From the IMG/VR virus record IMGVR_UViG_3300008987_000001: DNA of 64,000 nt. The stretch is one strand, 5' to 3'. Made by a program: the position numbers and the translations under genes. This document shows positions 2,477 through 50,657 of this stretch, piece after piece (positions within the stretch are counted from its first letter, which is position 1; every line of letters starts with the position of its first letter). Source of the DNA: a virus. Taxonomy: Duplodnaviria; Heunggongvirae; Uroviricota; Caudoviricetes. The notes below the pieces were generated by a model. The model searched no databases. It worked only from the letters and a program-made list of their open reading frames with translations, and had not been told where the DNA came from.

Positions 2477-2484
2477 ATATATAA
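2477..2484 (+). promoter_or_regulatory. TATA-like box (ATATATAA) with a downstream GGTGA RBS before the 2513 fibre gene
   Basis: Member of the recurrent CTTATATA-type motif found upstream of many genes in this window. AGGTGA lies at 2501-2506, 7 nt before the ATG. Confidence 0.4.
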
Positions 2485-2512
2485 ATCACATTTTTAAACA
2501 AGGTGATACACC

Positions 2513-4453
2513 ATGACAACATATAGAGTGTGGAATGGAACATCGTGGGAATATATCGATAATCAAAATTATGATGCACGATATTTACTACGTAGTGAGT
2601 TGGGTGCAGCAGAAGGTACTTCTTCATTAGATTCATCTGGACACATACCTACTGAACAATTACCAAGTAGTATTACCGGGGCGGTGAGTTATCAGGGAAC
2701 CTTTGATCCAACAAGTGGATCCCCAACTCCTGCAGCCCAAGGATATTACTATGTAAGTGATGGAGTAGGCACAATTGATACTACATCCTTTGCAACTGGT
2801 GATTGGCTTGTATATCGTGATGATACTACATGGGATAAAATTGCCAATAGTAGTGCTAGTATTACATGGTCTAATATATCTGATAAACCTGCAGGTTATA
2901 CACCGGAATCACATGGTAATGAAGCACATGATGTAGTTTATGCCGTGACAAGTGATATCACATATGAGACGCTTAACACAAATGGAGATGTGGGGGTTAG
3001 TGCAGGACAACTCGCCATTGGTAATCATACCCATAGTGATTTACAACCAATTGATGGAGATCTCACAGCAATCGCTGCATTAAGTGGAAGTGCAGGATTA
3101 CTTCGCAAGACTGCATCTAACACATGGACACTTGATACTAACACATATATTACATCATTAACTAAAGCACCCGATTCAACCTTATGGGATGGTACTGCAT
3201 TACCATCATTTACCGACAATGAGTTGAAGTATATAAGATTGAATGCCGGTGGTGATGCTCTTGAATTTAGCAGTGTTTCCATTGCAATAAATGCCACACA
3301 ATGGGATGGAGTAGCACGTCCAGTATTAACTGATAATGCACTAAAATATCTACGTGTTAATACTGATGCAAGTGCCCTTGAATTTGCAACTGTAAGTGGG
3401 GGAGATGGAACTTGGGGTAGCATTACTGGAACCATATCAGATCAAACTGATTTATATAGTGAATTTGCAACAGTTGATGATAGCAGGTTTACTGATGCCA
3501 GAACACCAACTGCTCATAATCTAATTGATACAACCGGGCACTCTGTTAGTGGACTTACCATTGGGCATTTCCTGAAAGCGACTGGAGCAACAACCTATGC
3601 ATTTGGTGCTCATGGTTTAACTGCCAGTGATGTAGGTGCTCAACCAGTAGATGATGAATTAACGTCACTTGCCGGATTATCACTTACTGGGAATGGTGGA
3701 AAGGTTATATCTGTTAAATCTGATGTTTCTGGATTTGAATTAACAACTCCTGCAACTGGTGGAGATATCACATCTGATGGAAACTGGGTTGCTGCAGGTG
3801 ATCTCATTGTTGGAACTGGTGAAAATACTGCAGCGATTTTAACAAAAGGAACTGAAGGACAGGTTCTCAAAGTTGGATCATCAACTCTTGAATGGGGTGC
3901 AGAAACAACGTATTCTCTTCCAACTGCCGCATCAGATACTCTTGGTGGAGTAAAAATTGGAACAGGTATATCAATTGCTGCCGGAGTAATTACACCAGAT
4001 ATTAATGGACTCACATTACTTGATGAGGCTCCAGCAGATGGAGATTATTTTGCAATATATGATACATCCGGGACTGCACTCAAAAAGGTTGCTGCATCTA
4101 ATGTGGGTGGATCGTCTGGTGGGGGTATTACATGGAATGAAGTCACAGGCACTACACAGGCTGCTGCCGTTGATAATGGATATATCTGTAACAATGCAGC
4201 ATTGGTGACTGTAACGTTACCATCTACCTGTGCATTAGGAAAGACCATCAGAGTTGCTGGTAAGGGTGCTGGGGGATGGAAAATTGCCCAAAATGCAAGT
4301 CAGCAAATCCATTTCGGTGATCAGTCTACAACATCTGGAACTGGTGGATCTATATCGTCCGGGTACAAGTACGATGCGATAGAACTGATATGTATTACTG
4401 CTGACACGACATTCCTTGTCATATCCGCAGTTGGAACGATGGATGTGGTCTAA
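2513..4453 (+). CDS. Tail-fibre / receptor-binding protein (GNHTHS HxH motif, repeated WDG..LP..D..LKY...ALEF modules)
   Basis: 646 aa, Gly/Thr/Ser-rich. HxH motif as in long-tail-fibre tips. Internally repeated ~40-aa module shared with ORF 1-2059. Confidence 0.5.
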   Translation: MTTYRVWNGTSWEYIDNQNYDARYLLRSELGAAEGTSSLDSSGHIPTEQLPSSITGAVSYQGTFDPTSGSPTPAAQGYYYVSDGVGTIDTTSFATGDWLVYRDDTTWDKIANSSASITWSNISDKPAGYTPESHGNEAHDVVYAVTSDITYETLNTNGDVGVSAGQLAIGNHTHSDLQPIDGDLTAIAALSGSAGLLRKTASNTWTLDTNTYITSLTKAPDSTLWDGTALPSFTDNELKYIRLNAGGDALEFSSVSIAINATQWDGVARPVLTDNALKYLRVNTDASALEFATVSGGDGTWGSITGTISDQTDLYSEFATVDDSRFTDARTPTAHNLIDTTGHSVSGLTIGHFLKATGATTYAFGAHGLTASDVGAQPVDDELTSLAGLSLTGNGGKVISVKSDVSGFELTTPATGGDITSDGNWVAAGDLIVGTGENTAAILTKGTEGQVLKVGSSTLEWGAETTYSLPTAASDTLGGVKIGTGISIAAGVITPDINGLTLLDEAPADGDYFAIYDTSGTALKKVAASNVGGSSGGGITWNEVTGTTQAAAVDNGYICNNAALVTVTLPSTCALGKTIRVAGKGAGGWKIAQNASQQIHFGDQSTTSGTGGSISSGYKYDAIELICITADTTFLVISAVGTMDVV

Positions 4454-5413
4454 ATGGCCAAACAATCTGCTTTTTACGAACCGCCATCTGATTCCCAGAC
4501 GTATTACCGCTCAACGGGATACTGGTCAATTGGTATTGGTATTGATCGGGGTATTATCGCGGGTGGAACCACTGGATCCGTGAGCAATGTCATTGACTAC
4601 ATCACCATATCACTTGCAGGGAACGCTACTGACTTTGGTGATCTGACAGTTGCACGAAGTCAACTTGGCGGGGCAGCATCATCAACTAGGGGTATAATTT
4701 TTGGAGGAACAACTGGATCGGTAAGCGATGTAATTGACTATGTAACAATTGCTACAGTTGGTAACGCGACAGATTTCGGAGATTTGGATGCTGCACGGCG
4801 TGGTGTATCTGGGTGTTCAAATGAGACAAGAGGATTGCAGGTTGGAGGATATACCACTGAAGCAGTCAATGTAATTACCTATGTTACTATAGCAACAACG
4901 GGTAATGCAACCGATTTCGGAGATTTAAGTGCAGTAAAATATTTTACATCAAGTTTGGCATCATCTACAAGGGGGATTGCTGCGGGTGGATATGATGCAG
5001 TAGATGTTATTGAGTATGTGACTATTGCTACAACCGGAAACGTGACGAATTTTGGTGATCTATCTACTGGAAGAGATTTGTGTGCAGGGTGTAGTTCATC
5101 AGTTCGCGGATTGATTATTGGTGGATTGAATAGTGGAGACACGTATCTGGATAGCATTGAGTATGTAACAATTGCTACAACAGGCAATGCTGCGTCTTTT
5201 GGAAGTTTGAGTGCTACACGCGGGTATTCTGCAGCAACATCAAACGCATTACGTGGAATCATTGCAGGTGGATTGAATTCAAGTGCAGAATATCTGAATG
5301 TAATTGAGTATGTAACAATTGCTACAACAGGCAGTTCAACTGATTTTGGCGATTTGACAGTATCAAGAAGCATCTCTGCTGGATTATCAGATTGTCATGG
5401 TGGGCTCGTATGA
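4454..5413 (+). CDS. Repeat protein: six ~48-aa blade-like repeats (core GG..S.VIDY[IV]TIATTGNATDFGDL), possible Kelch-like beta-propeller; C-terminus SDCHGGLV
   Basis: ATG abuts the stop codon of the fibre gene. Six full repeats are visible in the translation. Tandem paralog follows. Confidence 0.55.
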   Translation: MAKQSAFYEPPSDSQTYYRSTGYWSIGIGIDRGIIAGGTTGSVSNVIDYITISLAGNATDFGDLTVARSQLGGAASSTRGIIFGGTTGSVSDVIDYVTIATVGNATDFGDLDAARRGVSGCSNETRGLQVGGYTTEAVNVITYVTIATTGNATDFGDLSAVKYFTSSLASSTRGIAAGGYDAVDVIEYVTIATTGNVTNFGDLSTGRDLCAGCSSSVRGLIIGGLNSGDTYLDSIEYVTIATTGNAASFGSLSATRGYSAATSNALRGIIAGGLNSSAEYLNVIEYVTIATTGSSTDFGDLTVSRSISAGLSDCHGGLV

Positions 5414-6330
5414 ATAAGCAATCCATAACGTATGAGGCAAATGCAGGGATACCATTGAAACGTAAGAACGGGCAATGGGGATTGACCGGGGGTATTGGCA
5501 GAGGCATCTTTGCAGGAGGATATGTATCTGCATATTCTAATGTCATTGATTACATTACGATTGCGACAACTGGCAACGCGACAGATTTCGGAGATTTGAC
5601 TGTCGCTAAGATGTTTTTAGGGTGTCCATCTTCATCAACACGGGGGTGTTTTGGTAGTGGCGATCCAAGCAATGTAATTGATTATATTACGATTGCGACA
5701 ACCGGTAATGCTACAGATTTTGGTGATTTAAGTGTATCACGATATGGACTTACTGCATGTTCCAACGAAACTCGTGGATGTTTCGCTGGTGGAAATGGGC
5801 CAAGTAACGTAATTGATTACATAACTATCGCAGTAAAAGGCAATGCTACAGATTTTGGAGATTTAACTCGATCAAACCTATATTTAGCAGGATGTGGATC
5901 GTCAACTCGTGGGGTGTTTGGTGGTGGGCATACAACAGTAAATGTCATTGATTATATTACGATTGCCACTACTGGGAATGCAGTGGATTTTGGAGATTTG
6001 ACAGTTGGTAGAGCAATAATGCAAGCGTGCTCATCATCTACCAGAGGTGTTTGGTTAGGTGGTACTAATGGATCATATCTTAACACGATCGATTACATTA
6101 CCATAGCATCTATTGGCAATGCGACCGATTTCGGAGACTTGCCCGCAACAACATTGAGTAATGATGGTGCAGCAACATCGAATGGGATTCGGGGAGTTGC
6201 ATATTTTCGCACACTTACTGGATATACTAGGTTACAATATGTAACTATAGCAATTACTGGAAACAGTTCTAATTTTGGAGAATTATCAGTAACACGATAT
6301 GGACTTGGTGCCTGCTCTGATTGTCATGGA
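4550..6330. repeat. About 12 degenerate tandem DNA repeats of ~144 bp underlying the two repeat-protein genes
   Basis: Reiterated nucleotide core gt/aattga(c/t)ta(c/t)at(a/t)ac(g/c)attgc(g/t)ac(a/t)ac(t/c)gg(c/t)aa(c/t)gc(g/t)aca/tgatttcggagatttga. Confidence 0.5.
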
Positions 6331-6342
6331 GGACTGGTCTAA
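5410..6342 (+). CDS. Second repeat protein (paralog of 4454-5413); probable ATG at 5410 overlapping the upstream stop (ATGA). The ORF track starts at a TTG at 5392.
   Basis: Same 48-aa repeat and the same C-terminal CSDCHGGLV. Confidence 0.55.
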   Translation: MNKQSITYEANAGIPLKRKNGQWGLTGGIGRGIFAGGYVSAYSNVIDYITIATTGNATDFGDLTVAKMFLGCPSSSTRGCFGSGDPSNVIDYITIATTGNATDFGDLSVSRYGLTACSNETRGCFAGGNGPSNVIDYITIAVKGNATDFGDLTRSNLYLAGCGSSTRGVFGGGHTTVNVIDYITIATTGNAVDFGDLTVGRAIMQACSSSTRGVWLGGTNGSYLNTIDYITIASIGNATDFGDLPATTLSNDGAATSNGIRGVAYFRTLTGYTRLQYVTIAITGNSSNFGELSVTRYGLGACSDCHGGLV

Positions 6343-6380
6343 ACATGACATTATATGTAGGCAATGGAGAAGTGTAAACA

Positions 6381-7199
6381 ATGAATAGTTTAGCTATTGT
6401 AGAAGAGACTGCGATGAAGTCATTGGCATCTCCCGAATATTCCGGGATGTTAGCCAAAATCGAGGAATCTGCACTGGAGATAAACCAAACTACCCAGATT
6501 TTTCAAAAGACTCAAAGTCAGTTCATGGATAACATGATGACAGTGTCTCACCCAACTCCATTTCGGAATTTACGGCAGATACTAGCTGAAATGAAAAAAT
6601 CACGGCAGGCAATGGGTGAGGCATACTTTAACATCGAAAAGAAGAAGATCAAGATTCGAAAACTCCAGAAACAACTCGAATCATATACGGATCCGCTTGA
6701 CCGGGAAGAGGTTGAACTCAAGATCCGTGAGGCTGAATGGCAGATTGAATGTATCATGGAAAATGTGGGTGGTGCAATCAGAAAACTGGCAAATTATACT
6801 GCCCAGTTTAATCTCATTAAGGGCCAGTTAACTGATTTATCCGAACAGACCTTCGAGGAGGAAGAGGAACGATACCACATTATGAAAGCCTTTGAACAGG
6901 GCATTTGTGCTGCCCGGAGTCATGGTGGATATATTGACGAAGGGAACCAGATTTATTTTACCCAGATTGGTATCAATGGAACGGTTGCACAGGTAGAGAT
7001 GACCAATTATCTGAACTGGGAAGCAACACAACTGCACAATCAACGTGAGATAACTCATGAGGACCAGATGATGTGGCTGAACGCCATGGCTGATAAGTTC
7101 AAAGGGTGTTCGAAAGCGTATGCAGAATACAAAGGGATGGATTTGAATACAGATTATGCACTATTAGGTGATCAGCGTGAGAAAACTACTCAAGTATAA
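6381..7199 (+). CDS. Hypothetical protein, coiled-coil-rich (fibre/baseplate-associated?)
   Basis: GGAG RBS 9 nt upstream. Long charged heptad-like stretches. Lies inside the fibre cassette. Confidence 0.35.
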   Translation: MNSLAIVEETAMKSLASPEYSGMLAKIEESALEINQTTQIFQKTQSQFMDNMMTVSHPTPFRNLRQILAEMKKSRQAMGEAYFNIEKKKIKIRKLQKQLESYTDPLDREEVELKIREAEWQIECIMENVGGAIRKLANYTAQFNLIKGQLTDLSEQTFEEEEERYHIMKAFEQGICAARSHGGYIDEGNQIYFTQIGINGTVAQVEMTNYLNWEATQLHNQREITHEDQMMWLNAMADKFKGCSKAYAEYKGMDLNTDYALLGDQREKTTQV

Positions 7200-11196: not shown

Positions 11197-11250
11197 TATA
11201 TAAAAGTGGAGAGTAAAGATTTTACAATTTTGAAAAATAGAAGTGAGGTA

Positions 11251-13500: not shown

Positions 13501-13513
13501 CTTATATATAAGG
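13501..13513 (-). promoter_or_regulatory. TATA-like box CTTATATATAAGG about 20-30 nt upstream of ORF 13178-13483
   Basis: Recurrent motif; see findings. Confidence 0.4.
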
Positions 13514-18946: not shown

Positions 18947-18994
18947 TAGGACGAATTATATCCACATATATATAAAAGTAATGTGTGTTATGAT

Positions 18995-23250: not shown

Positions 23251-23261
23251 ATATATAAGTG
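23251..23261 (-). promoter_or_regulatory. TATA-like box (CACTTATATAT in gene orientation) about 25 nt upstream of the GRD ATG
   Basis: Recurrent motif. Spacing fits an archaeal leaderless transcript. Confidence 0.4.
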
Positions 23262-26776: not shown

Positions 26777-26807
26777 TAATATATAATGAGGATTAAGTGA
26801 TATATAA

Positions 26808-27410
26808 ATGTATTTATGTGGTTTTTGTGGAAATGAAATAGATTTGCATCACAGAGATCAATTATGTTCATGTGGTGTCCCATTTAGACAAGGAATAATA
26901 TACAAACATGTGATAAATTATAACAATCTATCTATATACAATACATCATCAACTGATATTATACATCAAAAATTTAAAGATCTCCAACAATACACTTGCT
27001 CAGAATATTATGATGATGCAACAGATCATGAAGTTATGCATCAAGATTTATGTAACTTAACATTCGAAAATGAATCATTCGACATGGTAATTACACAAGA
27101 TATTATCGAACATGTAATTGATCCATTTAAAGCACTCAATGAAATAAATAGAGTATTGAGACCTAATGGATTTCATTTATGGACAATTCCAATTGACGAA
27201 GATATTGAAACAGCATCATGTACATATGAACTTTATCATGGAGATCCATTAAGGGAATGTGGTATAAAGGTATATACACTATTTGGATTTGATATAATTG
27301 ATATGATACCAAACACATCAATAATTGAAAAATATATTATATTTGAAAAAGTAGAAAATTTAAATTACAATTTATATATTTTAAAAACTATAAAAACTCC
27401 TTGTGAATGA
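26808..27410 (+). CDS. SAM-dependent methyltransferase (Methyltransf_11/23-like)
   Basis: DMVITQDIIEHVIDPFKALNEINRVLRPNGFHLWTIP. Confidence 0.45.
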   Translation: MYLCGFCGNEIDLHHRDQLCSCGVPFRQGIIYKHVINYNNLSIYNTSSTDIIHQKFKDLQQYTCSEYYDDATDHEVMHQDLCNLTFENESFDMVITQDIIEHVIDPFKALNEINRVLRPNGFHLWTIPIDEDIETASCTYELYHGDPLRECGIKVYTLFGFDIIDMIPNTSIIEKYIIFEKVENLNYNLYILKTIKTPCE

Positions 27411-28401
27411 TGTCCTGGCATACTCCATCCAATGCTCTATTTATTGCATCATTGCGACAAAACTGTGGGCAGTCATTGTTGGGTACAGTATTAAACACTT
27501 CATACATTTGCTCACTTTTTAGCACATCAGTAATACTTTGCTCATTTAGATTACCAATGTGATATGCTTTGTTTTGTCTATGGTGGATACATGCCCACAT
27601 TTGATTATCTGCAGTAATGACCGTGTTAAAGTACATGCCATGACACCGTGTATAGGGACGTTCAATCTCACCTACATGATCATACTTGTGGGTTGATGCA
27701 CGGATATTCAGTTTTGGGAATAAATCTTGTCCTTGCTTTATATATTCACTTACATCATTACATTCGCCAGTGAATGGTCGTAATTGAGCAAAATCAACAT
27801 GTAGACTATCAGCACGCTCAAAGAAATCCATGATGCCTGATAAAGTAGATTCACCAGTCAAGTATCCAAGACCAACAGATGTAATAGATTCGCTCACTGC
27901 ACGTAGTTGCATTAACTCATCAACATTATCAATTACATGCCAAAACTCTTCTTCCTCCATGCCATGGGTTAACTTATACATTGCAGGTGTTCCAGCATCT
28001 AATGATACTCTAAAGTATGTACAGCAATCAAGTATAGCACATCGAACATAATCATTGCACATAGCAAGTCCATTAGAGTTAAGTCCAATACTGATACCTG
28101 CATTCTTGAACATGTATAGTGCTTTGACAAAGTGAGGACTCATCATTGGCTCTCCCCCACCACTAATAACCACTGACTGAACATTCAAATTGCTCATTTG
28201 ATCAACAATTGAAGTGATTTGTTCAAGAGTTAACTCTGCGCCATTCTCCTTTACTCCCACACATTTTGGACATCGATTGTTACACTTGTTAGTTAAATCT
28301 AACTCGAATGATATGAGGGTTTCATGACCATGCACATAATTGTGGATTTTATCCTGATACTGTAGGATTTTCTCATTGGCATTGAAGTTGTTTAATTTCA
28401 T
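27388..28401 (-). CDS. Radical-SAM enzyme (probably sugar-modifying; not NrdG-like)
   Basis: CNNRCPKC = CxxxCxxC at residues 39-46. 337 aa, embedded in the glycan cluster. Confidence 0.55.
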   Translation of the reverse strand: MKLNNFNANEKILQYQDKIHNYVHGHETLISFELDLTNKCNNRCPKCVGVKENGAELTLEQITSIVDQMSNLNVQSVVISGGGEPMMSPHFVKALYMFKNAGISIGLNSNGLAMCNDYVRCAILDCCTYFRVSLDAGTPAMYKLTHGMEEEEFWHVIDNVDELMQLRAVSESITSVGLGYLTGESTLSGIMDFFERADSLHVDFAQLRPFTGECNDVSEYIKQGQDLFPKLNIRASTHKYDHVGEIERPYTRCHGMYFNTVITADNQMWACIHHRQNKAYHIGNLNEQSITDVLKSEQMYEVFNTVPNNDCPQFCRNDAINRALDGVCQDIIHKEFL

Positions 28402-28955: not shown

Positions 28956-30101
28956 CTATATAATTCTTCGTATCCAGTTAAGTCTTGTAACAATCTGTTT
29001 ATTTAATACTCGTTGATTAAAATTATTTAGAATATGCTCTTTACATTTATTTCCAAGCATTCTGGCGTATTGTTTATCATTCACCAATGATAGCATGTGC
29101 ATTGAAGCATGACCAATTATTGGATCTGCCCATAAAGATACTGGGTTATATAAACATTGTGATGTCATTGTTTTTATCATATTATAATCGACAAGCAATG
29201 CACATGAACTATCAGTAAATTCCATGGATCCTCCATAAGATGTGACAATAACAGGTTTCCCAAGATACATGGCTTCCATCATTCCAATACCCAGACCTTC
29301 AGATCGATGTAATGATACATAACAATCAGATGCATTTATAAGACCTAAAAATTCTGATTTATCTACAACACCTCGTATATACTTTATATTATTGTAACGC
29401 TTTATGTAATGTATAAATGGTGCTTCTTCAAATGCGAACATTTCACCAAACATTGATTTTATCACTAATTGCACATCTGCTCTATTCCCAAAAGCACTTA
29501 TGAACGAATCAACTACAGCATAAGGATTCTTTCTATCAATAGATCCATAATAATCAAAAGAATAAAAGAATGTAAATTTATTTGAATCCAGTCCATATTT
29601 TTTGTATATTGTGGGTGGTGAGCAAACATCAATTATATTTGTCTCTGGTGCATATGCAAGTTTATGTATTGGGATCCCACGGTGATCAAACTTTTTGAAT
29701 ACATCATAACAGAATTGTGAAAAGCACCATATCTCATCTACATAATTATATGCATCGGTCCATGGGAAATAATCTTCAAGTTCCCAGAACCATACTCCGA
29801 TTGTATACTCATCCTCAGAAATTTGATGGTGATTCACTATACTTATAGCAGATTCAGCCCCGCCAAGAATAACATTTATAGGATAATGATTTGGTTCAAT
29901 AAATGTTAATGTTGATTTAAATGGAGTTACGGTATGTGGAATATCATTATCAATGAGAGATTTATGAAGCACCCTTGCAATTTCCCCCATTCCATTATCA
30001 TGAAGAACTCCAGCGTATAAATCAACTCCGAATGAATTCCATTTATGTTTATTAAAAATAGAATTAGAAATTACAGAAATTGATTTATTTAAATGTAGCA
30101 T
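28956..30101 (-). CDS. Glycosyltransferase, GT-B fold (GT4-like)
   Basis: EGLGIGMMEAMYLGKPVIVTSYGGSMEF (E-x7-E motif region). Confidence 0.5.
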   Translation of the reverse strand: MLHLNKSISVISNSIFNKHKWNSFGVDLYAGVLHDNGMGEIARVLHKSLIDNDIPHTVTPFKSTLTFIEPNHYPINVILGGAESAISIVNHHQISEDEYTIGVWFWELEDYFPWTDAYNYVDEIWCFSQFCYDVFKKFDHRGIPIHKLAYAPETNIIDVCSPPTIYKKYGLDSNKFTFFYSFDYYGSIDRKNPYAVVDSFISAFGNRADVQLVIKSMFGEMFAFEEAPFIHYIKRYNNIKYIRGVVDKSEFLGLINASDCYVSLHRSEGLGIGMMEAMYLGKPVIVTSYGGSMEFTDSSCALLVDYNMIKTMTSQCLYNPVSLWADPIIGHASMHMLSLVNDKQYARMLGNKCKEHILNNFNQRVLNKQIVTRLNWIRRII

Positions 30102-31080: not shown

Positions 31081-31921
31081 GATTTATATAGTCCTTTAAT
31101 GCTCGTTCCCAATATGGTGTATATATAATATGCGATGCCATTGATGTATTACATTGTCCATTCGGTGACTCAAATGGTTCAATTTCTATAGATAAATTTG
31201 CTAATTCTTTTATTTTACAAGCAAACTCATACCAGGAACAAGATCCGGCATTATTTAAATGAAATGTTCCTCTAAAATTATTACGTACAAGTAAATTCAA
31301 CGCACCAGTTGCATCCCGACAATACGTTGGACTCATAATAATATTATCTGGTATCGAAAGATCATCTATAGCATGCAACACTTTCTCTATGAAATTTGGA
31401 CCCTTGTTACTTGATCCTTTGAGACCGAAGAGACTGGACACTCTCCCAATAATATAATTGTCAGTGACATCCATTATGGCTTGTTCACCACACACCTTAC
31501 TCCTCCCATATTCATTGAGAGGTGCTACAGGATCGTCCTCATAATATGGAGAGCCTTTCCTTCCATCAAATACATAGTCAGTGGAGAAGTGAATAAATGT
31601 AGCATCAATATCATTACAAGTGTATGCCATGGACTTTGGCACCTCACAGTTCATTAGGTGTGCTAACCGTGGGTTATTCTCACACCCATCAACATCATGA
31701 TATGCTGTACAATTAATCACAATGGATGGCCCCACTTCACTTATATATTTATATACAACTTCAGCATCCCTGACATCAAGATCGTGGTGACTTGGAGCAA
31801 TTGCATCAAATGCCTTGACAATCTCACACCCCAATTGTCCCGAACCACCAAATACCAAAACACGTGACATTATATAATAGTTAGTTTTCGTATATATAAA
31901 TCTAATTGTTATACAACCCAC
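31070..31921 (-). CDS. rmlD: dTDP-4-dehydrorhamnose reductase (RmlD-type short-chain reductase)
   Basis: VLVFGGSGQLG Rossmann motif. Family-typical length 283 aa. Confidence 0.55.
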   Translation of the reverse strand: MGCITIRFIYTKTNYYIMSRVLVFGGSGQLGCEIVKAFDAIAPSHHDLDVRDAEVVYKYISEVGPSIVINCTAYHDVDGCENNPRLAHLMNCEVPKSMAYTCNDIDATFIHFSTDYVFDGRKGSPYYEDDPVAPLNEYGRSKVCGEQAIMDVTDNYIIGRVSSLFGLKGSSNKGPNFIEKVLHAIDDLSIPDNIIMSPTYCRDATGALNLLVRNNFRGTFHLNNAGSCSWYEFACKIKELANLSIEIEPFESPNGQCNTSMASHIIYTPYWERALKDYINHDK

Positions 31922-31950
31922 TTATATATTATGCTGGATAATGTGTTAAG

Positions 31951-35934: not shown

Positions 35935-36357
35935 ATGATTTTATATATGAAGATATACTGCCCACATACAATTGGGAGCACTAAACCAGTTGTTTGTGAT
36001 CATGGGATGATACATGACACACGCTGTCCGTTTTGGCAACAGGATGGTCAATATGTCCATGTAGAGAATCTTATGGATAGTCCAATGGTGCTAGAGAGTG
36101 CTCTATGTAAATATATACCCAATATAATTCGTGATTTTGAAGTTGTGGGTAACTATAGATGGTACTGCACACAGTGGCCTGGAATCCGTGAGAAGGGGTA
36201 TGTGTGTATGTTGCAGGATGGACTAGGTAACAAGTTCACTGTGAGTGAAGTGGTATCACGTTATGCAAAGGATGAAGATTGTAATGAAATGATTAAGGAG
36301 GTGACAATTACTAATGATGGAGAAGGAGAGATCCAAGGATATAACATGTACCATTAA
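35935..36357 (+). CDS. Hypothetical protein
   Basis: TATA box AACTTATATATAA at 35910-35922. Confidence 0.3.
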   Translation: MILYMKIYCPHTIGSTKPVVCDHGMIHDTRCPFWQQDGQYVHVENLMDSPMVLESALCKYIPNIIRDFEVVGNYRWYCTQWPGIREKGYVCMLQDGLGNKFTVSEVVSRYAKDEDCNEMIKEVTITNDGEGEIQGYNMYH

Positions 36358-36594: not shown

Positions 36595-38994
36595 TTAGAA
36601 CCAAGCCTCCAGTGTATTTTGGCCATTGATTGCTGATTCCCAGTTAAGGCCAATGCTCCACATATAACTTTCCATTTTATCCTTTATACATTTATCTGCC
36701 ATAAGTTTCCAATCAACATCATGAATTATTTTCGAAGTATCAAATCCATCATCAATACAGATTACTCGATCTTCTTTGAGATATACTAAACGGGGCTTCT
36801 CTCCTTCCTGGATAATATATCCATACTCATTCTTTGCATATTCTTTACCATCTAGCCATGAATTCTTCTTATCATATTTCAACTTACGTAGTTCCTTTGG
36901 TAATGATATATCATATATATCTACTTCACCATTTCGAACTCGTTGGTATAGATTCTTTACATGGTTTGTAGCCTTATTCACATCACCTTCAATAATTGCA
37001 GTTTCTAGGAAGTATAGTAGGCATTCCTTTATTATTTTCGGATTATCAGAACGTTTGATTTCAAGACCCATGAACTTTAATTCACTGCATTCAGTTCCTT
37101 CTTCCCAAATTAAGTGTCCTGCATACTTCTTTTTCCCAGTCTTGTTTCGATCTGTTGTTTTGGATTTGAATAATAGACGTCTAAATAACTTCTCCGCTTT
37201 GAGTTTGAAATGAACAGACGAACCTTTTTCATCTGACCACTTTACCAGTTCTTCATTAAGGTATTTTTCTAACTCTAAACATTCGGAGCCAGTAAAAACC
37301 TCAGATATGAAAACGGAGTCAGTATCTCCGTAGATTATCGATTTGGAGCGATTAGAACAAAGTTTCTGTATATGCCTATTGAGGTCTTGTCCAGTTTGGG
37401 TAATGAATTCAGCTTTCTCACGATCATATAATCGAGCAGATGGAGCCCCCATAATACCAAACACACTATTTACAAGACTCTTTGCAGAACTGTCGCGTGC
37501 TCCTGCTCCCAATAGTCCTTGTTTTTTCTGTTCTCTATACATCTCGCGAAGATCCATAAGCTTCTTGGTTGATTTTGCCACAACTCCATCTATATCGGGC
37601 GAAACAGAAAATCCAACGATCACATGTGGATAAAGGGCATTTAAATCCACTGTAGAAACCCATTCGTGAATTCCGAACGTTGGCTCGACTACAAGGGCAC
37701 CCTTGAACTTATCTTTTTCTCCTCCATACTTCTTACGGGGCATTGGCTTAATTCCTTCATGCATGACATACATTTCAATAACAAGTGAATTATGTAAACC
37801 ATCCATTATTTTATTCCCTGCAATCGATCTTGTAGTCTCAAAGAAATTATACAGACCAAGTTTCTTATCAATTACTTGTAGTGCTATAACATCATTCTTA
37901 CAATATTCAATGAATTCATCAAATCGTTCTTCATTGATAATCTGATCGAGGATTGGTGCAATATCTTTATAACTAAATGCAGCATCTTCTAATAATTCTT
38001 CATCAGATATAACTGATTTGAGTCCATTAGATTCGCGTTGTCCCTTTCCAATATTATATTTCTTAAATGCTTCCATCTCATCAAGAACTGCTCTACCAGG
38101 AATATATGAGCGAAACTTTCCATAAGTTGGATCATATTTAATTGAACAAGATCCATATCGTGGAATTCCTTTAAGATTTGTTCCAATATTAATAGAACGG
38201 TTAATTAAGTATGGTATATCATACTGATCTGAATTCCAAGCAGCTAAAATGTCTGGATTTATTTCATGCACATATGCGCAGAATAATTTAAACAACTCTT
38301 TTTCAGTCTCACAACATATTTGGCATGGGTCACCAGTCTCGCCAATTTGATAAGTAAATACTGCAATCTTTTCAGTATACGAATCCATGACTTGAATACT
38401 TACTACTGGATACTCTACATCCTTTGCATTTGGAAATATACCTTCCGGAGCACGAGTTTCAATATCAAAATATACAATACGTGGATCCATTACATGTTCT
38501 ATGTCAATTGGAGAAGGAATTCCATCTATAAGTGTATATGCATAACGGATTTTATGATCTACAAGAAATCGTTTATCAAACAAAACATCACTTTCATCAG
38601 TCCATGAATAGATATCACGGACTTTTGATACATCACTTGGTATCTTGACATTTACACGTTGAATTTCTCTACCTTTCGCATCAATTATTATTTCTGGATC
38701 TACATTTGTAATTAGTTCATGTATACGATGAGATTCATTAACAGGACAATAGAAGTATGGATTATATTGAAATGAATGTGTAACAGTCTCAAACTTATCA
38801 TTATAATTTCGCGAATACAAATCTACATATGGGACTCCATATTGTAAATGGTATCCACTTTCCATGACAACCCATATTTGATCATCAGACATGTATACTA
38901 TATACAACTGCAATGTATAAAAAAGATGTGAGTTATACCCACATGATACCAAGGAAGAACCCAATAATAAGTCCAATGATAACCATGAGGACAC
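36595..38994 (-). CDS. polB: Family B DNA polymerase
   Basis: Exo I FDIET. Motif A DLNALYP. Motif C IIYGDTDSVFI. 799 aa. Confidence 0.8.
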   Translation of the reverse strand: MSSWLSLDLLLGSSLVSCGYNSHLFYTLQLYIVYMSDDQIWVVMESGYHLQYGVPYVDLYSRNYNDKFETVTHSFQYNPYFYCPVNESHRIHELITNVDPEIIIDAKGREIQRVNVKIPSDVSKVRDIYSWTDESDVLFDKRFLVDHKIRYAYTLIDGIPSPIDIEHVMDPRIVYFDIETRAPEGIFPNAKDVEYPVVSIQVMDSYTEKIAVFTYQIGETGDPCQICCETEKELFKLFCAYVHEINPDILAAWNSDQYDIPYLINRSINIGTNLKGIPRYGSCSIKYDPTYGKFRSYIPGRAVLDEMEAFKKYNIGKGQRESNGLKSVISDEELLEDAAFSYKDIAPILDQIINEERFDEFIEYCKNDVIALQVIDKKLGLYNFFETTRSIAGNKIMDGLHNSLVIEMYVMHEGIKPMPRKKYGGEKDKFKGALVVEPTFGIHEWVSTVDLNALYPHVIVGFSVSPDIDGVVAKSTKKLMDLREMYREQKKQGLLGAGARDSSAKSLVNSVFGIMGAPSARLYDREKAEFITQTGQDLNRHIQKLCSNRSKSIIYGDTDSVFISEVFTGSECLELEKYLNEELVKWSDEKGSSVHFKLKAEKLFRRLLFKSKTTDRNKTGKKKYAGHLIWEEGTECSELKFMGLEIKRSDNPKIIKECLLYFLETAIIEGDVNKATNHVKNLYQRVRNGEVDIYDISLPKELRKLKYDKKNSWLDGKEYAKNEYGYIIQEGEKPRLVYLKEDRVICIDDGFDTSKIIHDVDWKLMADKCIKDKMESYMWSIGLNWESAINGQNTLEAWF

Positions 38995-39226: not shown

Positions 39227-39282
39227 GTAACGTAATGGTTTGATGCAATTATATATAAGTGTAATGCTAAAAAAGTATGGGA

Positions 39283-41615: not shown

Positions 41616-43218
41616 CAGTATATGTATACAACTGATGGTATAAAATAGGTGGGTTAGTTAGAATCTTCTTCTTTGATCCAACGTGACAAACTAACTTGCT
41701 GATCGGTTGTAAAAAGTTCTGGTAAATAATCAATTAAACTCTTCTGCATATTAGATCACATCATCCATTCTAAATACTTCATCTTCTGGTAACTCACAGA
41801 ATGCTGCAATATCACGATCACTTTCGAATTTACAGTCGTGCCCGTTCGAGTTGAATATTCGCTTTGGTGGATCAAAGTACTTACAATACATGGGGCTCCC
41901 AAGTGAACGACCTCCACTATGATATGGGCACTCATGGCATGAATCGAAAGTCTTGATCATTGCAACACGTTTCATTGCCCACCATTCAATCTTATGCACC
42001 CATTATCTTTCCAAGCACCACAACGATACTCGCATTTAATTTTACTTGGGAGTAATATCATGTAGCCATTCTCACACCCAATGAAATACGGGTTACTTGG
42101 CATGTATGGACAGATAAATATCTCACTCGCCATGCATTGCTCCTTTGATCCATTTGGTTCTATACAATGATTGCAGATACATTTCAACCACTTCAATATG
42201 TATGTCAAAATCGTCAATGGATACATCATCATGCAATATTTCCAGTAATAATTGTTTATTCCATTCAATGTTCTCAAACATCTTCTTCATTACATTACTT
42301 CGATTCATAAATATCTCCTAATATATGATAGCCACTCTGGTAATTGTATATTTACGTTGTTCTTGGATTTACCCAATTGTAGTCCAAGATAGAACCCAAC
42401 TGCCATGAAAAGTAGTGATAGAATAACCATCATGATGAACCTACTTTATATCCAAGTATAATACCAAGCACAAATGATCCCATCAATACAATCACAATCC
42501 ACCACATGTTATGACCTTTGGTTGAGCATCCCTACAACAAATGTCACTATCACAATGAATGTCGGGAATATCAATTGCCAATACTCCATATTGAGATTCA
42601 TCCATGCATTTACTATAAACATCGCACACTGAATGTATAATAATATGAACATGGGCCCACCACTTGCAGTAGCAGAATTGTTCGTATTATATACATAGGA
42701 GACTGCTGGAACAACTTCTTCAGTCATCAGAATAAGTGGATCTGATAAGTATATAAATAATTCGACAAAAAATAGTTATGCGGTTGCCTGTTCTGGCTCA
42801 ACCACTTCAATGGTATTCAGATCTGCTGCTTGATCTTCGCCCTCTTTCATGAGGCCAATGCGAAGTTCTTCAAGTTTATCAACCATTGACTTCATCTGAT
42901 TATCGGTAATGGCTTGCATCATGGCAATGGATCTATAGTATTCAAGTTCCATGTCCTTCTTTTTCTGTGCATCGGTTACCGACTCCAGATCCTGAATAGA
43001 AGTAAAAAGGTAGTTCATACACGTTAACAGAGCGAGGCCCTCTTCGTTGTTAAATTCAATAGATACCAATACAATTCACCTATTTGATAAGTAGTGTAGT
43101 CTTTGTGTGTATATAAAGGTTATGGATGATATCATATCAAGTGGTATAATATTATGATATAAGCATCAACAATATATTTTCTTTTTAAACTAAAGATATA
43201 TCTGTGACCTAATGATAT

Positions 43219-44861: not shown

Positions 44862-44973
44862 CTCTCGATAGTTTTTTAGACATAAATGTAGGTTTTACAA
44901 TTATATATAAGTAATGGGTGGGTAAATATAGCAAATGAAATCATATATATCTTAATAAAATAAATATACCCCT

Positions 44974-46330: not shown

Positions 46331-47500
46331 TTAAATGAGGCCCTTTGCACGGAGCCGTTCCATGACCTTATCATGCTCACTGTCGAATGCCTTGATAACA
46401 CCCCACAACTCATAGTATGGGACCATGATCTTGTTACCATCTTCATCGAGCACTGGATTCTTATTGTTATCGGTCTTTGCGAATGACTTCTTACATCCAA
46501 CTACAATAACATCATCACCAGTCTGAATGTTATCAGAGATGTATGCCACGGTATTCTCATAGGAACTTCCAAGGTTGATACCATTCACAACATCAACATT
46601 CCCAATACGAAGTTTGGCCTTCAGATATTTGTTCCCGCTGTATGAAGTCTGTTCATTAATGTCAACCTTCTGAACATTTCCAGAGGTAATGAACTTGGTG
46701 TACACATTCTTACGATTCCCATCAACAACCTCGATCACCGGAGTAGATACAACCTCTATGAGATCCATCCATAGATCTGTGGAAGGGAGCACTCTCATGG
46801 CCACATCATATGACTTCTGATAGATATCATTGCCTTCGTATGCATCCTTACTCACGGTAAAGTACTCACCATTTTCACGACCATACACAGTTGACTTCTT
46901 TCCAATGTCAGGATGATTTACAATCTCTTTGTCCCACGACATAGAGGCCATCTTGAACTCTGCCTTTGCATCACCATTAATTCCAGTAATGATCATTGGG
47001 ATTGAAACTTTAAATGCATCAGGGATATCCTTACCAAAGTTTGGATTTGCTTCCTCTACATTGTTTCCATCCTTGTCCTTACGCTTGATCATTGGTTCGT
47101 TATCAAGGGGGATTGGATACACATTACCATTCTTGCTGGTTGCTTCCCGAACTTTGCTAGCCTTTACTGCACCCTTTGGATCCTTCTTATATTCTTCACG
47201 AAGTTGCCATTTCTTATATGAGTTTCTATCATCTGGTGGACTGACTCCAAGGATAATTGCATTAACCGTGCTGATGAGTCCCTTTTCAGCCTGGTCCTTT
47301 GCATAAGCAAGCCCACTTAATCTAAACAGTTTTCCAATGTTATTCCCAACAATCTTCTCGACTTCAGCATCAATTTCATCTGCTTCATATATACCAGTGA
47401 GTTCAGCCTTAACTTCGGCGGCAAATTTCTCCACCTTTGCCTTGACTTCGGATGGATCTTTCTTTAGTTTTTCTGCTAATTTATCGTAATCAAATGCCAT
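46331..47500 (-). CDS. Hypothetical protein (389 aa), possibly structural or ssDNA-binding
   Basis: Long ORF with an acidic coiled N-terminus. No firm motif. Confidence 0.3.
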   Translation of the reverse strand: MAFDYDKLAEKLKKDPSEVKAKVEKFAAEVKAELTGIYEADEIDAEVEKIVGNNIGKLFRLSGLAYAKDQAEKGLISTVNAIILGVSPPDDRNSYKKWQLREEYKKDPKGAVKASKVREATSKNGNVYPIPLDNEPMIKRKDKDGNNVEEANPNFGKDIPDAFKVSIPMIITGINGDAKAEFKMASMSWDKEIVNHPDIGKKSTVYGRENGEYFTVSKDAYEGNDIYQKSYDVAMRVLPSTDLWMDLIEVVSTPVIEVVDGNRKNVYTKFITSGNVQKVDINEQTSYSGNKYLKAKLRIGNVDVVNGINLGSSYENTVAYISDNIQTGDDVIVVGCKKSFAKTDNNKNPVLDEDGNKIMVPYYELWGVIKAFDSEHDKVMERLRAKGLI

Positions 47501-47834
47501 GGTAGGTTACCTACTAGTTTTTTGTGGACCCAATAAGGTGAGTTACCATTGTATATAAGTATTGCGGGAGAATATCCGCTATTAAAATCAAAAAAGAGGT
47601 CAGGTAATTAAACCTTGTGATCAACTGCATACCAATCGCATGCTGGTCGCCGTGCTCTACATATCACCTCATGCTTATCACAATAAATAATTGGCTCTAA
47701 ATCATCATCACATGTATACAATTTCATATGCAACTCATGAGCAAACTTACATTGGTCACATACAACATCATTAAATAAGAACACATGAGTAATACCACCT
47801 ACTGTCAAAATCTTACCACTTGACATTTTTCCAC

Positions 47835-48257: not shown

Positions 48258-48335
48258 TATTATATAGGATGTTATTCAACTATATAAAGGTTTATATATA
48301 CACACAAATTATATATAACATTAGGAACATATCTT

Positions 48336-49517: not shown

Positions 49518-49586
49518 GTGCTTGATAAAACAAAGGGAAGGAAGAAGATCCTTACCCATTCGTTCTACTTTGTTGGCACAGTTATA
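49518..49586 (-). repeat. Intergenic structured repeat, copy F (the overlapping ORF 49311-49559 is probably spurious)
   Basis: CTGTGCCAACAAAG ... GGGTAAGGATCTTCTTCCTTCCC ... TTTGTTTTATCAAGCACTC. Confidence 0.45.
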
Positions 49587-50427
49587 TATGTGTTACCTGT
49601 ATATAATTGTTACGTGTTAAGCCAAGTGGATAAATTGTAAACAATAGTCATCTTTGAAGACTCTTGGCCATGGTGGGGGTAACAAATGACATGTGCTGGT
49701 TGATGAGTCATACGCTTCACATAACTGACAACGGCCTGATACTTTAGGAATCTCGGTTATGTGGTTGGATATTCCACCACGTTTAAATATAATCCCAGTT
49801 TCATTGGCATCTATAACACATGAACTTTTAAAGGCCACATCATCTGGGTTATATTGGGGTGGTGGGATTACCTTTTTACGTCTTGTATTACGCCTTGCAT
49901 TATCACAAGTTTTGCAGATCCAATCGTGCTTCTTAAAGTTGCTTGGATAGATGTTGTCTAGTGTAAGTGGTTGCTTACAAACTCTACAATTGTGTGTCAT
50001 GAATAATACTTACCTTACTGTTTTTCTATGAACCATAATGACAATGCATTCCCAACATTGCGAATTTTTTCTGACATTTCACATAATACAAATGGTCTAT
50101 TGTCATATGGATGCGAGTCTTTACCAAATTCTAATGCAATTTCCCATAATTTATCTGCTAATTTTATAAGTTCGTTTACATCATATTGTGTAATATCAGT
50201 ATAATTCATGTATAATACTTGTAATCAGCCTTGAGGAGTTCTTTTGCTAGGAATTTCATAGAGAATGTAACTTGGACCTCTGTTTCATTATAAGTTATGG
50301 TCTCGGTTAGTTCTTTGGATATGATTTCCAGGAGGAATTCTTTGGGGTAGGTATGGGTGGAGTCAAGGCCCCAGATGTTACCAAAGCGGGTTCGTTGTAC
50401 TTTTAGAACTTTCTCTTCATTGTTCAT

Positions 50428-50564
50428 GATGTAGACCTCTTGAGGTATGCAAGGAGTTCATTGTTTTGACGAATGATGTGGTTGTTCTGTTCTATTATGA
50501 GGGCCAATAGATCCTCATCATACTTTGGAGTTTCATTGAATGTGTTATGAGTTGTATATTCCAT
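50428..50564 (-). CDS. Unannotated 46-aa micro-ORF (MEYTTHNTFNETPKYDEDLLALIIEQNNHIIRQNNELLAYLKRSTS) coupled by ATGA to ORF 50206-50427
   Basis: TATA-like boxes at 50566-50578 and 50588-50598 upstream. Stop overlaps the next start. Confidence 0.3.
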
Positions 50565-50657
50565 TTATATATAATTGTGGATGGTAATATATAAAGGTTA
50601 CTTATGATCTAATCAAGATGAAATGTAAGTAAACAATATAAAGAAAGGTTATACTCT

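Follow-up and report, generated by a model that had tools for sequence, protein, structure and literature searches.

Results

TATA-like boxes precede many viral genes

The window, the whole 64-kb stretch of DNA analysed, is part of a virus genome of ~133 kb in which A/T-rich octamers lie upstream of many genes. On the minus strand, the PolB gene, whose ATG at 38892 coincides with an independent JGI gene call (P0001, 765 aa), has the box TTTTATAC 30 nt upstream (38915..38922). A 97-aa ORF has CTTATATA 33 nt upstream of its ATG at 39226 (39252..39259, minus); the box is preceded by a T6 run (39269..39274, minus), an example of a terminator-like oligo-T tract, 8 nt past the stop of gene 39283-40185. 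Another CTTATATA (23252..23259, minus) stands 31 nt upstream of ATG 23228, the start of what would be a leaderless gene heading the NrdD operon; the genes behind it are separated from the preceding gene by 11 nt or overlap it by 7 and 20 nt, and the NrdD gene carries an AGGAG site. For RmlC (ATG 28934; JGI call P0257, 178 aa), ATTATATA lies 30 nt upstream (28957..28964, minus), and a second box at 28942-28949 is merely 15 nt off. Further minus-strand boxes precede the genes for AdoMet decarboxylase (TTTATATA, 18969..18976, 30 nt upstream of ATG 18946), thymidylate kinase (CTTATATA, 51249..51256, 32 nt upstream of ATG 51224) and a MarR/TrmB-like winged helix (TTTATATA, 51693..51700, 32 nt upstream of ATG 51668). 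The same arrangement is found at ATG 48257 (TTTATATA, 48281..48288, minus, 31 nt upstream, one of four TATA-like elements grouped at 48260-48319) and at ATG 13483, where the box (13505..13512, minus, 29 nt upstream) is inside the palindrome CTTATATATAAG.

Divergent genes can carry back-to-back boxes. The pair at 31893..31928 has one on each strand: TTTATATA (31893-31900, minus) 30 nt before the RmlD ATG at 31870, and CTTATATA (31921-31928, plus) 30 nt before GTG 31951. At 26801..26808 (minus), TTTATATA lies 32 nt upstream of ATG 26776 and overlaps the start codon of the divergent plus-strand gene 26808-27410, whose own box, TTAATATATAAT, adjoins 26776; both promoters have the 31-nt gap in common.

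Octamers of the forms NTTATATA and TTTATATN occur 158 times, strand-specifically, in the window. The non-coding 15% holds 83 of them (binomial p=4e-28), and the other 75 fall inside ORFs, where they may be non-functional or may serve as internal promoters. Intergenic DNA contains 79 octamers; shuffling the intergenic segments with their composition preserved yields 15±4. The TTATATA core is present in 131 copies (38±7 expected), and TTATATAT, ATTATATA, CTTATATA and TTTATATA are among the top over-represented 8-mers relative to a third-order Markov model. The recurrent box of the original prediction is therefore real and enriched, but its literal 11-mer, CTTATATAYAA, is too narrow: with 8 copies (0.28 expected), it covers only 5 of the 12 boxes then listed. 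Similarly, the proposed extended form, TTATATANAATGG, exists in only two exact copies, yet has 13 matches at one mismatch (1.6 expected); the variant TTATATATAATTG is more frequent (n=5), and the 19-mer TTATATATAATTGTAAAAC is present identically at 25673 and 44892. The core is almost palindromic (TTATATATAA), so the strand of each box was assigned from the downstream gene; where an intergenic region has two to four boxes, as several do, the one in use was picked by spacing alone.

Boxes lie at a fixed distance from start codons

We measured spacing from ORF-opening ATGs, which are independent of start calls. In the window, 29 distinct ATGs have a TATA-like heptamer beginning 28-34 nt upstream, whereas other 7-nt offset windows average 6.1 and reach at most 11 (Poisson p=2e-11). 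Counted from the start codon, the octamer falls at -31 to -24. It would be conceivable that chance TA-rich words in AT-rich intergenic DNA sit near starts merely by being intergenic, given an A+T content of 67% in intergenic and 62.5% in coding sequence and a GC content of 36% for the genome as a whole. The shuffled controls speak against this, as does the peak itself, which is only 7 nt wide, stands 4-5x above adjacent offsets that are intergenic too, and is repeated in several relatives whose genes were called independently. Such a compositional artefact, to which we assign almost no probability, is largely refuted.

The prediction that boxes usually lie 20-35 nt before the first start codon proved right for half of the listed sites. 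Six are at 29-33 nt (13501, 23251, 31920, 39250, 50588 and, through the neighbouring box at 28957-28964, 28937). Five (2477, 43107, 44899, 47544 and 48936) are 36-59 nt away, so those genes have leaders; 35912 is ambiguous, at 24 or 36 nt, with a GGTGAT site also there. The listed coordinates were off by 1-8 nt, and most boxes are on the minus strand. Two of the more distant boxes illustrate leadered genes. CTTATATACAATGG (47552..47559, minus) lies 59 nt upstream of ATG 47500 (389-aa gene), implying a leader of ~29 nt with a weak AGGT site, and TTTATATA (43110..43117, minus) lies 48 nt upstream of TTG 43069, with AGGTGA in the leader 6 nt before the start. The claim that first genes are leaderless thus agrees with the 28-34-nt spacing and the lack of Shine-Dalgarno (SD) sites there, but fails for four or five of the listed genes.

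Ribosome-binding sites mark a different set of genes

Because the box itself helped to decide the refined start calls in the window, the following class counts are circular: matches to AGGAGGTGATC placed 4-11 nt before the start are at least 5 nt long in 28 genes and 4 nt long in a further 25, and GTG or TTG starts, foreseen as occasional, do occur in the TATA class but are rare (3/29). Genes of the TATA class have a median gap of 76 nt to the upstream gene, those of the SD classes one of 11-13 nt. The longest SD match, AGGAGGTGA (36296..36304, plus), belongs to an internal gene and lies 9 nt before its ATG at 36314. Seven gene junctions are 4-nt ATGA overlaps, among them that of RmlC and a radical-SAM gene (28398..28401, minus). 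Internal genes thus carry GGAGGTGA-type sites or overlaps, as anticipated. The tightly packed small genes at 52000..64000 (minus) have few correctly spaced boxes and mostly SD-type or overlapping starts; they probably form long operons, some of which may start outside the window edge. T5+ runs follow 27 genes, compared with 11 for A5+ runs.

Spacing and SD exclusion recur in related viral contigs

The spacing peak is found again in relatives, with TTTTATAA as the box. Matches at the peak number 9 in contig L001 and 13 in L002, against ~1 expected in each, and the peak is also present in L086, L088, L089, L090 and L094. The PolB promoter stays at 30 nt in three genomes while its sequence drifts from TTTTATAC to TTTTATAA (L001, L002). 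In a pooled logo of 62 promoters, a T/A block spans -31 to -23, G is nearly absent from -45 to -1 and an SD motif is absent; the segment at the position of the B recognition element (BRE) gives a weak, A/C-rich signal (C at -37; A at -39, -36 and -35).

This drift bears on whether the boxes are mainly sites for a virus-encoded regulator, or replication-related repeats, with the basal promoter elsewhere. The virus encodes several DNA-binding proteins (MarR/TrmB winged helix, KilA-N and Bro-N candidates), a near-palindromic core suits a dimer, 13501-13512 is a perfect 12-mer palindrome, and the tandem boxes of many regions and shared extended forms (five copies of TTATATATAATTG, two of the 19-mer) fit as well. 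A sequence-specific regulator would not, however, tolerate the switch to TTTTATAA that relatives make while holding position. The constant 28-33 nt to start codons is the geometry of TBP/TFB, and the box agrees with the general TATA consensus of methanogens. We therefore regard this explanation as unlikely, although regulator sites may well overlap some boxes, in which case it would add to a promoter function more than compete with it.

Third-party gene calls for L001, L002 and L083 (102 genes) allowed SD exclusion to be assessed free of the start-call circularity, as does the ORF-opening-ATG test for spacing. In this set, a box stands 27-33 nt before 24 genes. SD matches of at least 5 nt occur in 0/24 boxed genes and 21/78 others (p=0.003), and matches of at least 4 nt in 4/24 and 45/78 (p=4e-4). 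These numbers count against a bacterial origin, in which a phage of a CPR or other low-GC bacterium would have TATAAT-like -10 elements of sigma-70 promoters as its boxes, with short leaders behind them. Many boxes do contain TATAAT, and bacteria also use GGAGGTGA-type sites. Were a -10 box to lie 28-31 nt from the ATG, however, the leader would be ~17 nt long and should contain an SD site; in bacterial leaderless genes the box is ~10 nt from the start (PMC6028130). Moreover, there is no conservation 17 nt upstream of the box, and neither bipartite sigma-70-type promoters (84 vs 103±9 expected) nor hairpin terminators (8 vs 9.6 expected) are enriched in the window. The closest genomic relatives of PolB do lie in metagenome-assembled genomes (MAGs) labelled Saccharibacteria, Syntrophaceae, Paceibacterota and Babeliales; we read these labels as mis-binning, though formally they are contrary host evidence. 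With a PCNA rather than a beta-clamp, an ERCC4 nuclease, a Methanoregulaceae-like NrdD and a haloarchaeal-virus-like PolB, the gene content points to archaea, and we consider a phage very unlikely.

Gene content points to an archaeal, probably methanogen, host

The replication module that had been taken as a sign of an archaeal host was recovered as PolB, ERCC4, an RNase H-like protein and a PD-(D/E)XK nuclease; PCNA is weakly supported (E=1e-3 to Archaeoglobus PCNA, full length), with archaeal PCNAs as its best PDB matches. The TrmB-like winged helix was likewise found, as a MarR/TrmB protein, together with KilA-N and Bro-N proteins. RNA polymerase, TBP and TFB had no match among the ~80 ORFs scanned. 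The best cultured relatives of PolB are those of haloarchaeal tailed viruses and its best cellular relatives those of Methanomicrobiales and Halobacteriales; a PolB cluster 55% identical to it has four members, all from Methanospirillum MAG or RefSeq records. For NrdD, the nearest named cellular relatives belong to Methanoregula, Methanolinea and other Methanomicrobiales (53-56% identity). The FTR-like gene, NrdD and Grx are of Methanomicrobiales type, and the Grx-NrdD pair also occurs in M. boonei, where its promoter, the only one read, has a leader with an SD site.

A eukaryotic large DNA virus with Pol II-like TATA promoters would also place its box at about -30, and PolB, PCNA, ERCC4, KilA-N and Bro-N occur in nucleocytoplasmic viruses too. 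SD sites 4-11 nt upstream of internal genes and ATGA-overlap operons contradict such an origin, as do the predicted absence of an untranslated leader, the Methanomicrobiales-type NrdD, Grx and FTR-like genes, and haloarchaeal tailed viruses being nearest by PolB; we judge it exceedingly improbable.

Methanomicrobiales, specifically Methanoregulaceae or Methanospirillaceae, are the most likely host lineage, which we favour at somewhat better than even chances. When 550 kb of Methanomicrobiales loci were scanned crudely, at low power with few TTTAWA matches, the 28-31-nt peak did not appear, and these sampled loci have 46-66% GC compared with 36% for the virus. The earlier argument from AT-richness against a haloarchaeal host holds in part: a non-halophile is plausible given ~36% GC and the affinity of NrdD to methanogens, but low GC alone is weak.

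Discussion

The signals predicted as archaeal in style showed archaeal box geometry, SD exclusion and a match to the methanogen TATA consensus. We consider it very likely that the boxes are archaeal TATA-box promoters of a virus that infects an archaeon, its first genes probably being leaderless; judged from spacing, a 1-5 nt leader would look identical. Under this model, host TBP would bind the A/T octamers (consensus N-TTATATA), with TFB contacting the G-poor, A/C-rich segment directly upstream. RNA polymerase would start ~23-25 nt downstream of the box, which in about 25-30 transcription units would be the A of the start codon, and the first gene would be translated from a leaderless mRNA with a 5'-terminal AUG. 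Downstream operon genes would be reached by pairing of GGAGGTGA-type sites with the 16S rRNA 3' end or, alternatively, by termination-reinitiation where genes overlap through ATGA or in a similar way. Leaders of 10-30 nt would be present on a minority of first genes (boxes at 43117, 44911, 47559 and 48949), and oligo-T tracts past terminal genes would act as intrinsic archaeal terminators. Transcription and translation would depend on the machinery of the archaeal host.

This layout resembles that of group D archaeal genomes as defined with GeneMarkS-2 (Lomsadze et al. 2018, PMC6028130) and mapped in Halobacterium, Haloferax and Sulfolobus, a group that includes 40 of 42 Methanomicrobia (PMC6028130). 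Like the virus, they have a box at a fixed distance of ~22-26 nt (~26 nt upstream of leaderless first genes in group D, 22-24 nt in H. salinarum; PMC6028130), SD-type sites on internal and leadered first genes (PMC6028130), and two mutually exclusive start signals. Group D genomes are cellular, whereas the genome here is viral and its layout was read from spacing, with a correctly spaced box at about one-quarter of all ORFs and leaders on a minority of first genes. The viral N-TTATATA also fits the M. jannaschii TATA consensus TWTATATA, which is accompanied by BRE, PPE and Inr elements (Zhang et al. 2009, PMC2699501), and would lie at about -31 to -24 if transcription starts at the ATG; both have an A/T-rich, often second-TATA-like proximal region near -12 to -2. 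In contrast, M. jannaschii transcripts are mostly leadered (three-quarters at most 80 nt), the relatives of the virus prefer TTTTATAA, and the viral BRE-position segment, weak and A/C-rich with C at -37, differs from the purine-rich BRE of well-studied archaea.

Among archaeal Caudoviricetes, HF1, HF2, HRTV, HCTV and HJTV-1 are the best cultured matches for PolB, at 24-25% identity over 93% of the protein (E about 1e-40), and are likewise large double-stranded DNA viruses that encode replication genes of their own. Kinship to these haloarchaeal viruses is very remote, and no similarity was found at the nucleotide level. They are GC-rich, have halophile hosts and span ~75 kb, whereas the ~133-kb virus has 36% GC and a Methanomicrobiales-type anaerobic ribonucleotide reductase. 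Aoguangviridae (magroviruses) and other large uncultured archaeal viruses are similarly known only from metagenomes, with large genomes and near-complete replication modules of PolB and accessory proteins (PMC10768690); unlike this virus, they have marine, aerobic hosts, and PolB searches found no homology link to them. The expression mechanism proposed here is a known one, and the novelty is its occurrence in a new uncultured virus.

A TATA-like box at a fixed distance from start codons

A TATA-like A/T octamer (the box) recurs throughout the window at well above its expected frequency. The literal motif CTTATATAYAA occurs in 8 copies against 0.28 expected and TTATATA in 131 against 38 ± 7, and under a third-order Markov model 8-mers containing TTATATA rank among the most over-represented words. 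There are 158 strand-specific octamers (NTTATATA or TTTATATN), of which 83 fall in the non-coding 15% of the window (p = 4e-28). Intergenic matches total 79, compared with 15 ± 4 after shuffling each intergenic segment. The enrichment of the motif is thus real. The original prediction listed twelve box positions and an extended form shared by several. Five of the twelve match the literal 11-mer; most boxes lie on the minus strand, and the coordinates were 1–8 nt off. The extended form as first written, CTTATATAnAATGG, exists in only two exact copies, TTATATATAATTG being commoner, and one exact 19-mer is common to two promoters.

We measured spacing independently of chosen gene starts, from each TATA-like heptamer to any ATG opening an ORF of at least 40–50 codons. 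Distances from box start to start codon peak at 28–31 nt, with 29 matches in that 4-nt bin versus 0–10 elsewhere. Counted as distinct ORF-opening ATGs with a box 28–34 nt upstream, there are again 29, whereas other 7-nt offsets average 6.1 and reach at most 11 (Poisson p = 2e-11); the spacer between box and start at these 29 ATGs is 20–25 nt. This spacing is real and is the key result of the analysis. Together, the intergenic shuffles and the narrowness of the spacing peak exclude a compositional artefact. An octamer starting 30 nt upstream spans −30 to −23, with a spacer of 22 nt; archaeal TATA boxes stand in this position relative to the transcription start. Given a TATA-like geometry at −30, we infer that transcription begins at or next to the start codon. 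Box-derived starts agree with two JGI gene calls for the window's own contig, PolB (765 aa) and RmlC (178 aa).

Spacing at the originally listed sites was less uniform than had been proposed. Six lie 29–33 nt from a start and 35912 is ambiguous, while the boxes at 2477, 43107, 44899, 47544 and 48936 stand 36–59 nt away, and therefore belong to leadered genes, some with a Shine–Dalgarno (SD) site.

A bacterial reading would take the box for a sigma-70 −10 element, and it fails on four counts. Bipartite −35/−10 sites are not enriched (84 versus 102.7 ± 9.4 expected), nor are terminators made of a GC-hairpin and T-run (8 versus 9.6 ± 3.4 expected); no conservation appears at the −35 position; and the implied leader of ~17 nt lacks an SD site, though SD sites are clearly used elsewhere. 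Bacterial leaderless initiation is likewise rejected: leaderless genes carry their box ~10 nt from the start in bacteria and ~22–26 nt in archaea (PMC6028130), and the box-to-ATG distance here is 28–33 nt.

Promoter spacing in related viral contigs

The strict TTATATA octamer is not enriched in the closest relatives, whose upstream regions carry a TTTTATAA variant at the same position. Because relatives use TTTTATAA, we widened the motif pattern. With this broader A/T heptamer set, the 28–31 nt peak emerges in the related viral contigs L001 (9 versus ~1) and L002 (13 versus ~1), and also in L086, L088, L089, L090 and L094; it fades in relatives whose PolB identity is ~36% or below. The PolB promoter illustrates the pattern: its box is TTTTATAC in the window and, in both L001 and L002, TTTTATAA, in every case exactly 30 nt before the ATG.

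Exclusion between box and SD site was tested on gene starts called by others, using the relatives' calls in place of calls for the window's own contig (102 genes from L001, L002 and L083). A box lies 27–33 nt upstream of 24 of the 102 genes. SD matches of at least 5 nt occur in 0/24 box genes versus 21/78 others (p = 0.003), and matches of at least 4 nt in 4/24 versus 45/78 (p = 4e-4).

Promoter anatomy

In an ATG-anchored logo pooled from 62 promoters of four genomes, T predominates from −31 to −26, and A at positions −25 and −23. The signal upstream of the box is weak, poor in G and rich in A and C: 31 of the 62 promoters have C at −37, and A recurs at −39, −36 and −35. This segment occupies the position of the BRE (TFB recognition element) but is unlike the canonical purine-rich BRE. 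Between −45 and −1, G is almost absent; A is enriched at positions −17 and −10, and −1 favours T. No SD site appears in the pooled logo. Many promoters have a further TATA-like stretch near −12 to −2, which fits the A/T-rich proximal promoter element of methanogens, and the window's box consensus fits the methanogen TATA consensus, TWTATATA (PMC2699501).

Several promoters have unusual layouts. In a divergent pair at 26776–26808, the gap is 31 nt and the TATA box of either gene abuts or overlaps its neighbour's start codon, so two initiation complexes should exclude each other. Two back-to-back boxes at 31870–31951 each lie 30 nt from their own start. Judging by the L001 ortholog, the AAA_24 ATPase gene downstream of the box at 44911 starts at TTG 44852, 59 nt away. 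This strong box, CTTATATATAATTGTAAAAC (region 44835–44911, minus strand), precedes by 28 nt an ATG whose ORF, at 44883, has just 16 codons; that ORF overlaps the probable TTG start and could represent a leaderless upstream ORF with coupling to the AAA_24 gene. The 19-mer promoter of this region has an identical copy at 25673–25691. Elsewhere, TTTATATA stands directly against the first ATG of minus-strand ORFs 9955–11196 and 61596–62123, at a distance of 7–8 nt, and neither ORF has an in-frame start 28–33 nt downstream of it (regions 9955–11204 and 61596–62130).

The palindromic core, common extended forms and tandem boxes would suit virus-encoded regulators, which may bind sites overlapping the boxes. 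Yet position is conserved across relatives while sequence drifts, which argues that TBP is the primary reader of the box. It is possible that viral regulators define temporal classes of promoter, recognisable by extended variants such as TTATATATAATTG(TAAAAC), by tandem boxes and by interleaved divergent boxes.

Gene classes and operons

Because the box was one of the criteria for refining starts within the window, the class counts serve only as description: 29 ORFs are TATA-proximal (median upstream gap 76 nt), 28 have an SD match of at least 5 nt (13 nt), 25 an SD match of 4 nt (11 nt) and 28 neither signal (35 nt). The proposal that internal genes carry SD sites or overlap their upstream neighbour was borne out, with SD-class gaps of 11–13 nt versus 76 nt in the TATA class and ATGA overlaps at seven junctions; other junctions overlap by 1, 7, 8 or more nt. 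Operons, overlaps and SD sites also exclude the reading of this genome as a eukaryotic virus. Runs of five or more T follow the stop codon within 60 nt in 27 genes, and runs of five or more A in 11. The T-runs often sit just ahead of the next box, as with T6 at 39269–39274 before the box at 39252–39259.

The NrdD operon offers a clean example. Its first ORF, predicted to be leaderless, starts at 23228, downstream of a box at 23252–23259. After an 11-nt gap comes the glutaredoxin gene, then the NrdD gene, which overlaps it by 7 nt and carries an AGGAG site; the FTR-like gene overlaps NrdD downstream.

Genome and gene content

The window has a GC content of ~36%, and its genes run on the plus strand at 1–7500 and almost all on the minus strand beyond. 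Its PolB product exactly matches P0001, a JGI gene call on a 133,370-bp metagenome contig; the window thus covers roughly half of a ~133-kb element. PolB relatives at 72%, 60%, 48% and 42% identity lie on contigs of 135, 64.6, 91–130 and 127 kb, several of which are IMG/VR UViGs. Searching IMG/VR with the single PolB sequence gave no match, and recovering relatives there required the PolB alignment A1. A nucleotide search against cultured phages and archaeal viruses was also without a match.

The replication module and winged helix named in the original prediction were recovered: PolB (36595–38892, minus), an ERCC4 nuclease (12496–13185), an RNase H-like protein (44974–45384, plus), a PD-(D/E)XK nuclease (43219–44007) and a MarR/TrmB winged helix (51303–51668). 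The PCNA (23396–24172, minus) is a weak but full-length match (E = 1e-3 to A. fulgidus PCNA), and its top PDB matches are all PCNAs. Also encoded are the AAA_24 ATPase (44010–44861), a Dam methyltransferase (41148–41615), KilA-N and Bro-N proteins (17759–18508 and 33107–33907), and a dCMP deaminase, a ThyA-like protein and a thymidylate kinase (13515–13985, 24728–25450 and 50658–51296). Among ~80 ORFs scanned, we recognised no RNA polymerase, TBP or TFB. No HK97-fold major capsid protein, large terminase or portal was recognised within the window, ~69 kb of the contig lying outside it. Tail-type matches are weak only (phrog_1446 minor tail, E = 1e-4; NosD beta-helix). PHROGs and PDB searches returned no match for the ERCC4 protein or for four large proteins of unknown type (46331–47500, 9955–11196, 39283–40185 and 14755–15453).

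An anaerobic ribonucleotide reductase (RNR) module (19444–23243, minus) is split. A 101-aa ORF (22923–23228), which supplies a Zn-ribbon and the RITGY glycyl-radical motif, is followed downstream by a glutaredoxin/NrdH-like ORF (22690–22911, minus) and the main NrdD body (19655–22696, minus), which is interrupted by an intein with a LAGLIDADG endonuclease; a ferredoxin-thioredoxin-reductase beta-like ORF follows (19444–19707, minus). The RxxGY motif is absent from the main NrdD body and from its Methanoregula homologs (~727 aa). Gene order is the same in L083 (19225–21992), without the intein. The split module resembles the NrdD3/NrdH/ferredoxin-disulfide-reductase system reportedly found in Methanosarcina barkeri.

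An NAD-salvage-like cluster (58111–62123, minus) comprises NAMPT (60220–61599), DUF5662 (61596–62123) and a cytidylyltransferase-like protein (58111–59127; together with NAMPT, 58111–61599), and L002 keeps the NAMPT–DUF5662 pair (3461–5355). A glycan-modification island (26261–31921) holds RmlC, RmlD, GT1 and GT2 glycosyltransferases, a radical-SAM/SPASM protein and two methyltransferases; the corresponding region of L001 has glycosyltransferases and TylF-type methyltransferases instead. Three minus-strand auxiliary genes unusual for a virus, each with its own TATA box, encode a GAF-PAS sensor-domain protein (16517–17560), a pyruvoyl-type AdoMet decarboxylase (18572–18946) and an SPFH/Band-7 protein (11251–12159). 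A tRNA cluster (34690–35610, minus) occupies a ~2-kb ORF-poor region. Rfam and ARAGORN together identify three tRNAs (Gln-UUG, Leu-CAA and an odd 86-nt 'Phe-AAA'), and the region has at least four further T-arm-like GGTTCGA(A/T)TCC segments and a marginal 93-nt Val-AAC call; these could represent tRNAs that are degenerate or non-canonical. The window has 9 copies of the 8-mer AGGCTGAA (reverse complement TTCAGCCT) versus 1.1 expected, scattered and mostly inside genes, at 999, 6730, 34559, 39436, 45230, 46178, 47285, 47402 and 61336.

Host

The best cultured matches of PolB are haloarchaeal tailed viruses, at 24–25% identity over 93% of the protein. Across 185,579 species genomes, the closest matches (34–47%) are virus-like contigs binned as Saccharibacteria, Syntrophaceae, Paceibacterota and Babeliales MAGs (L003, L004, L005 and L006, the last being the same contig as IMG/VR UViG L103), and the next are cellular PolBs of Methanomicrobiales and Halobacteriales (25–28%). 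These bacterial bins likely reflect mis-binning of low-GC viral contigs, that is, MAG contamination. All four members of a PolB cluster at 55% identity come from Methanospirillum sp. MAG or RefSeq records. For the NrdD N-extein, the first ~30 matches are viral-type proteins, and the named matches after them are almost exclusively Methanoregula, Methanoregulaceae, Methanolinea and other Methanomicrobiales (53–56% identity). M. boonei 6A8 is among the NrdD matches, and its genome has the same glutaredoxin–NrdD pair. We set aside RmlC (P0257) as a host marker, its type being archaeal but without lineage specificity.

Haloarchaea are leaderless. Methanomicrobiales loci showed no spacing peak in a low-power scan (~550 kb), and such scans of host DNA are uninformative because TTTAWA matches are too few, even in ~550 kb of Halobacteriales. 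The single M. boonei promoter inspected is leadered. GeneMarkS-2 assigns 40 of 42 Methanomicrobia to group D, the class combining leaderless first genes that have a promoter box with SD-led internal genes (PMC6028130). We consider an archaeal host very probable; the narrower assignment to Methanomicrobiales is plausible, and we lean towards it.

Discussion

The arrangement in the window is the known archaeal core promoter combined with the dual leaderless/SD start architecture of group D (PMC2699501, PMC6028130). Of its five defining features, three were found: A/T-octamer enrichment, fixed spacing and SD exclusion; at the BRE position the signal is weak. As the arrangement matches a known archaeal pattern, the mechanism is not new. 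The new element is the uncultured virus, whose clade is catalogued in IMG/VR; a literature search found no description of this clade.

We tentatively raise the possibility of an undescribed, family-level clade of unusually large (~127–136 kb) viruses of Methanomicrobiales (Methanoregula or Methanospirillum). Its members are catalogued only as IMG/VR UViGs, and CPR and other bacterial MAGs have repeatedly taken them in, probably through mis-binning. They appear wholly dependent on host TBP, TFB and RNA polymerase, with operons that appear mostly leaderless, and appear to carry a host-type NrdD/NrdH/ferredoxin-disulfide-reductase-like module together with genes for NAD salvage and dTDP-rhamnose glycosylation.

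The signals are textbook archaeal biology, and their value is diagnostic, providing a homology-independent call of an archaeal host for an uncultured ~133-kb virus clade. They mark as probable contaminants the related contigs binned in Saccharibacteria, Paceibacterota, Babeliales and Syntrophaceae MAGs, and they correct many start errors of longest-ORF calling, including those of PolB, RmlD, Tmk, PCNA and the NrdD C-terminal ORF. The analysis supplies 25–30 predicted promoters ready for in vitro or metatranscriptome tests, and an initial operon map of a virus whose hosts are probably methanogens of global importance.
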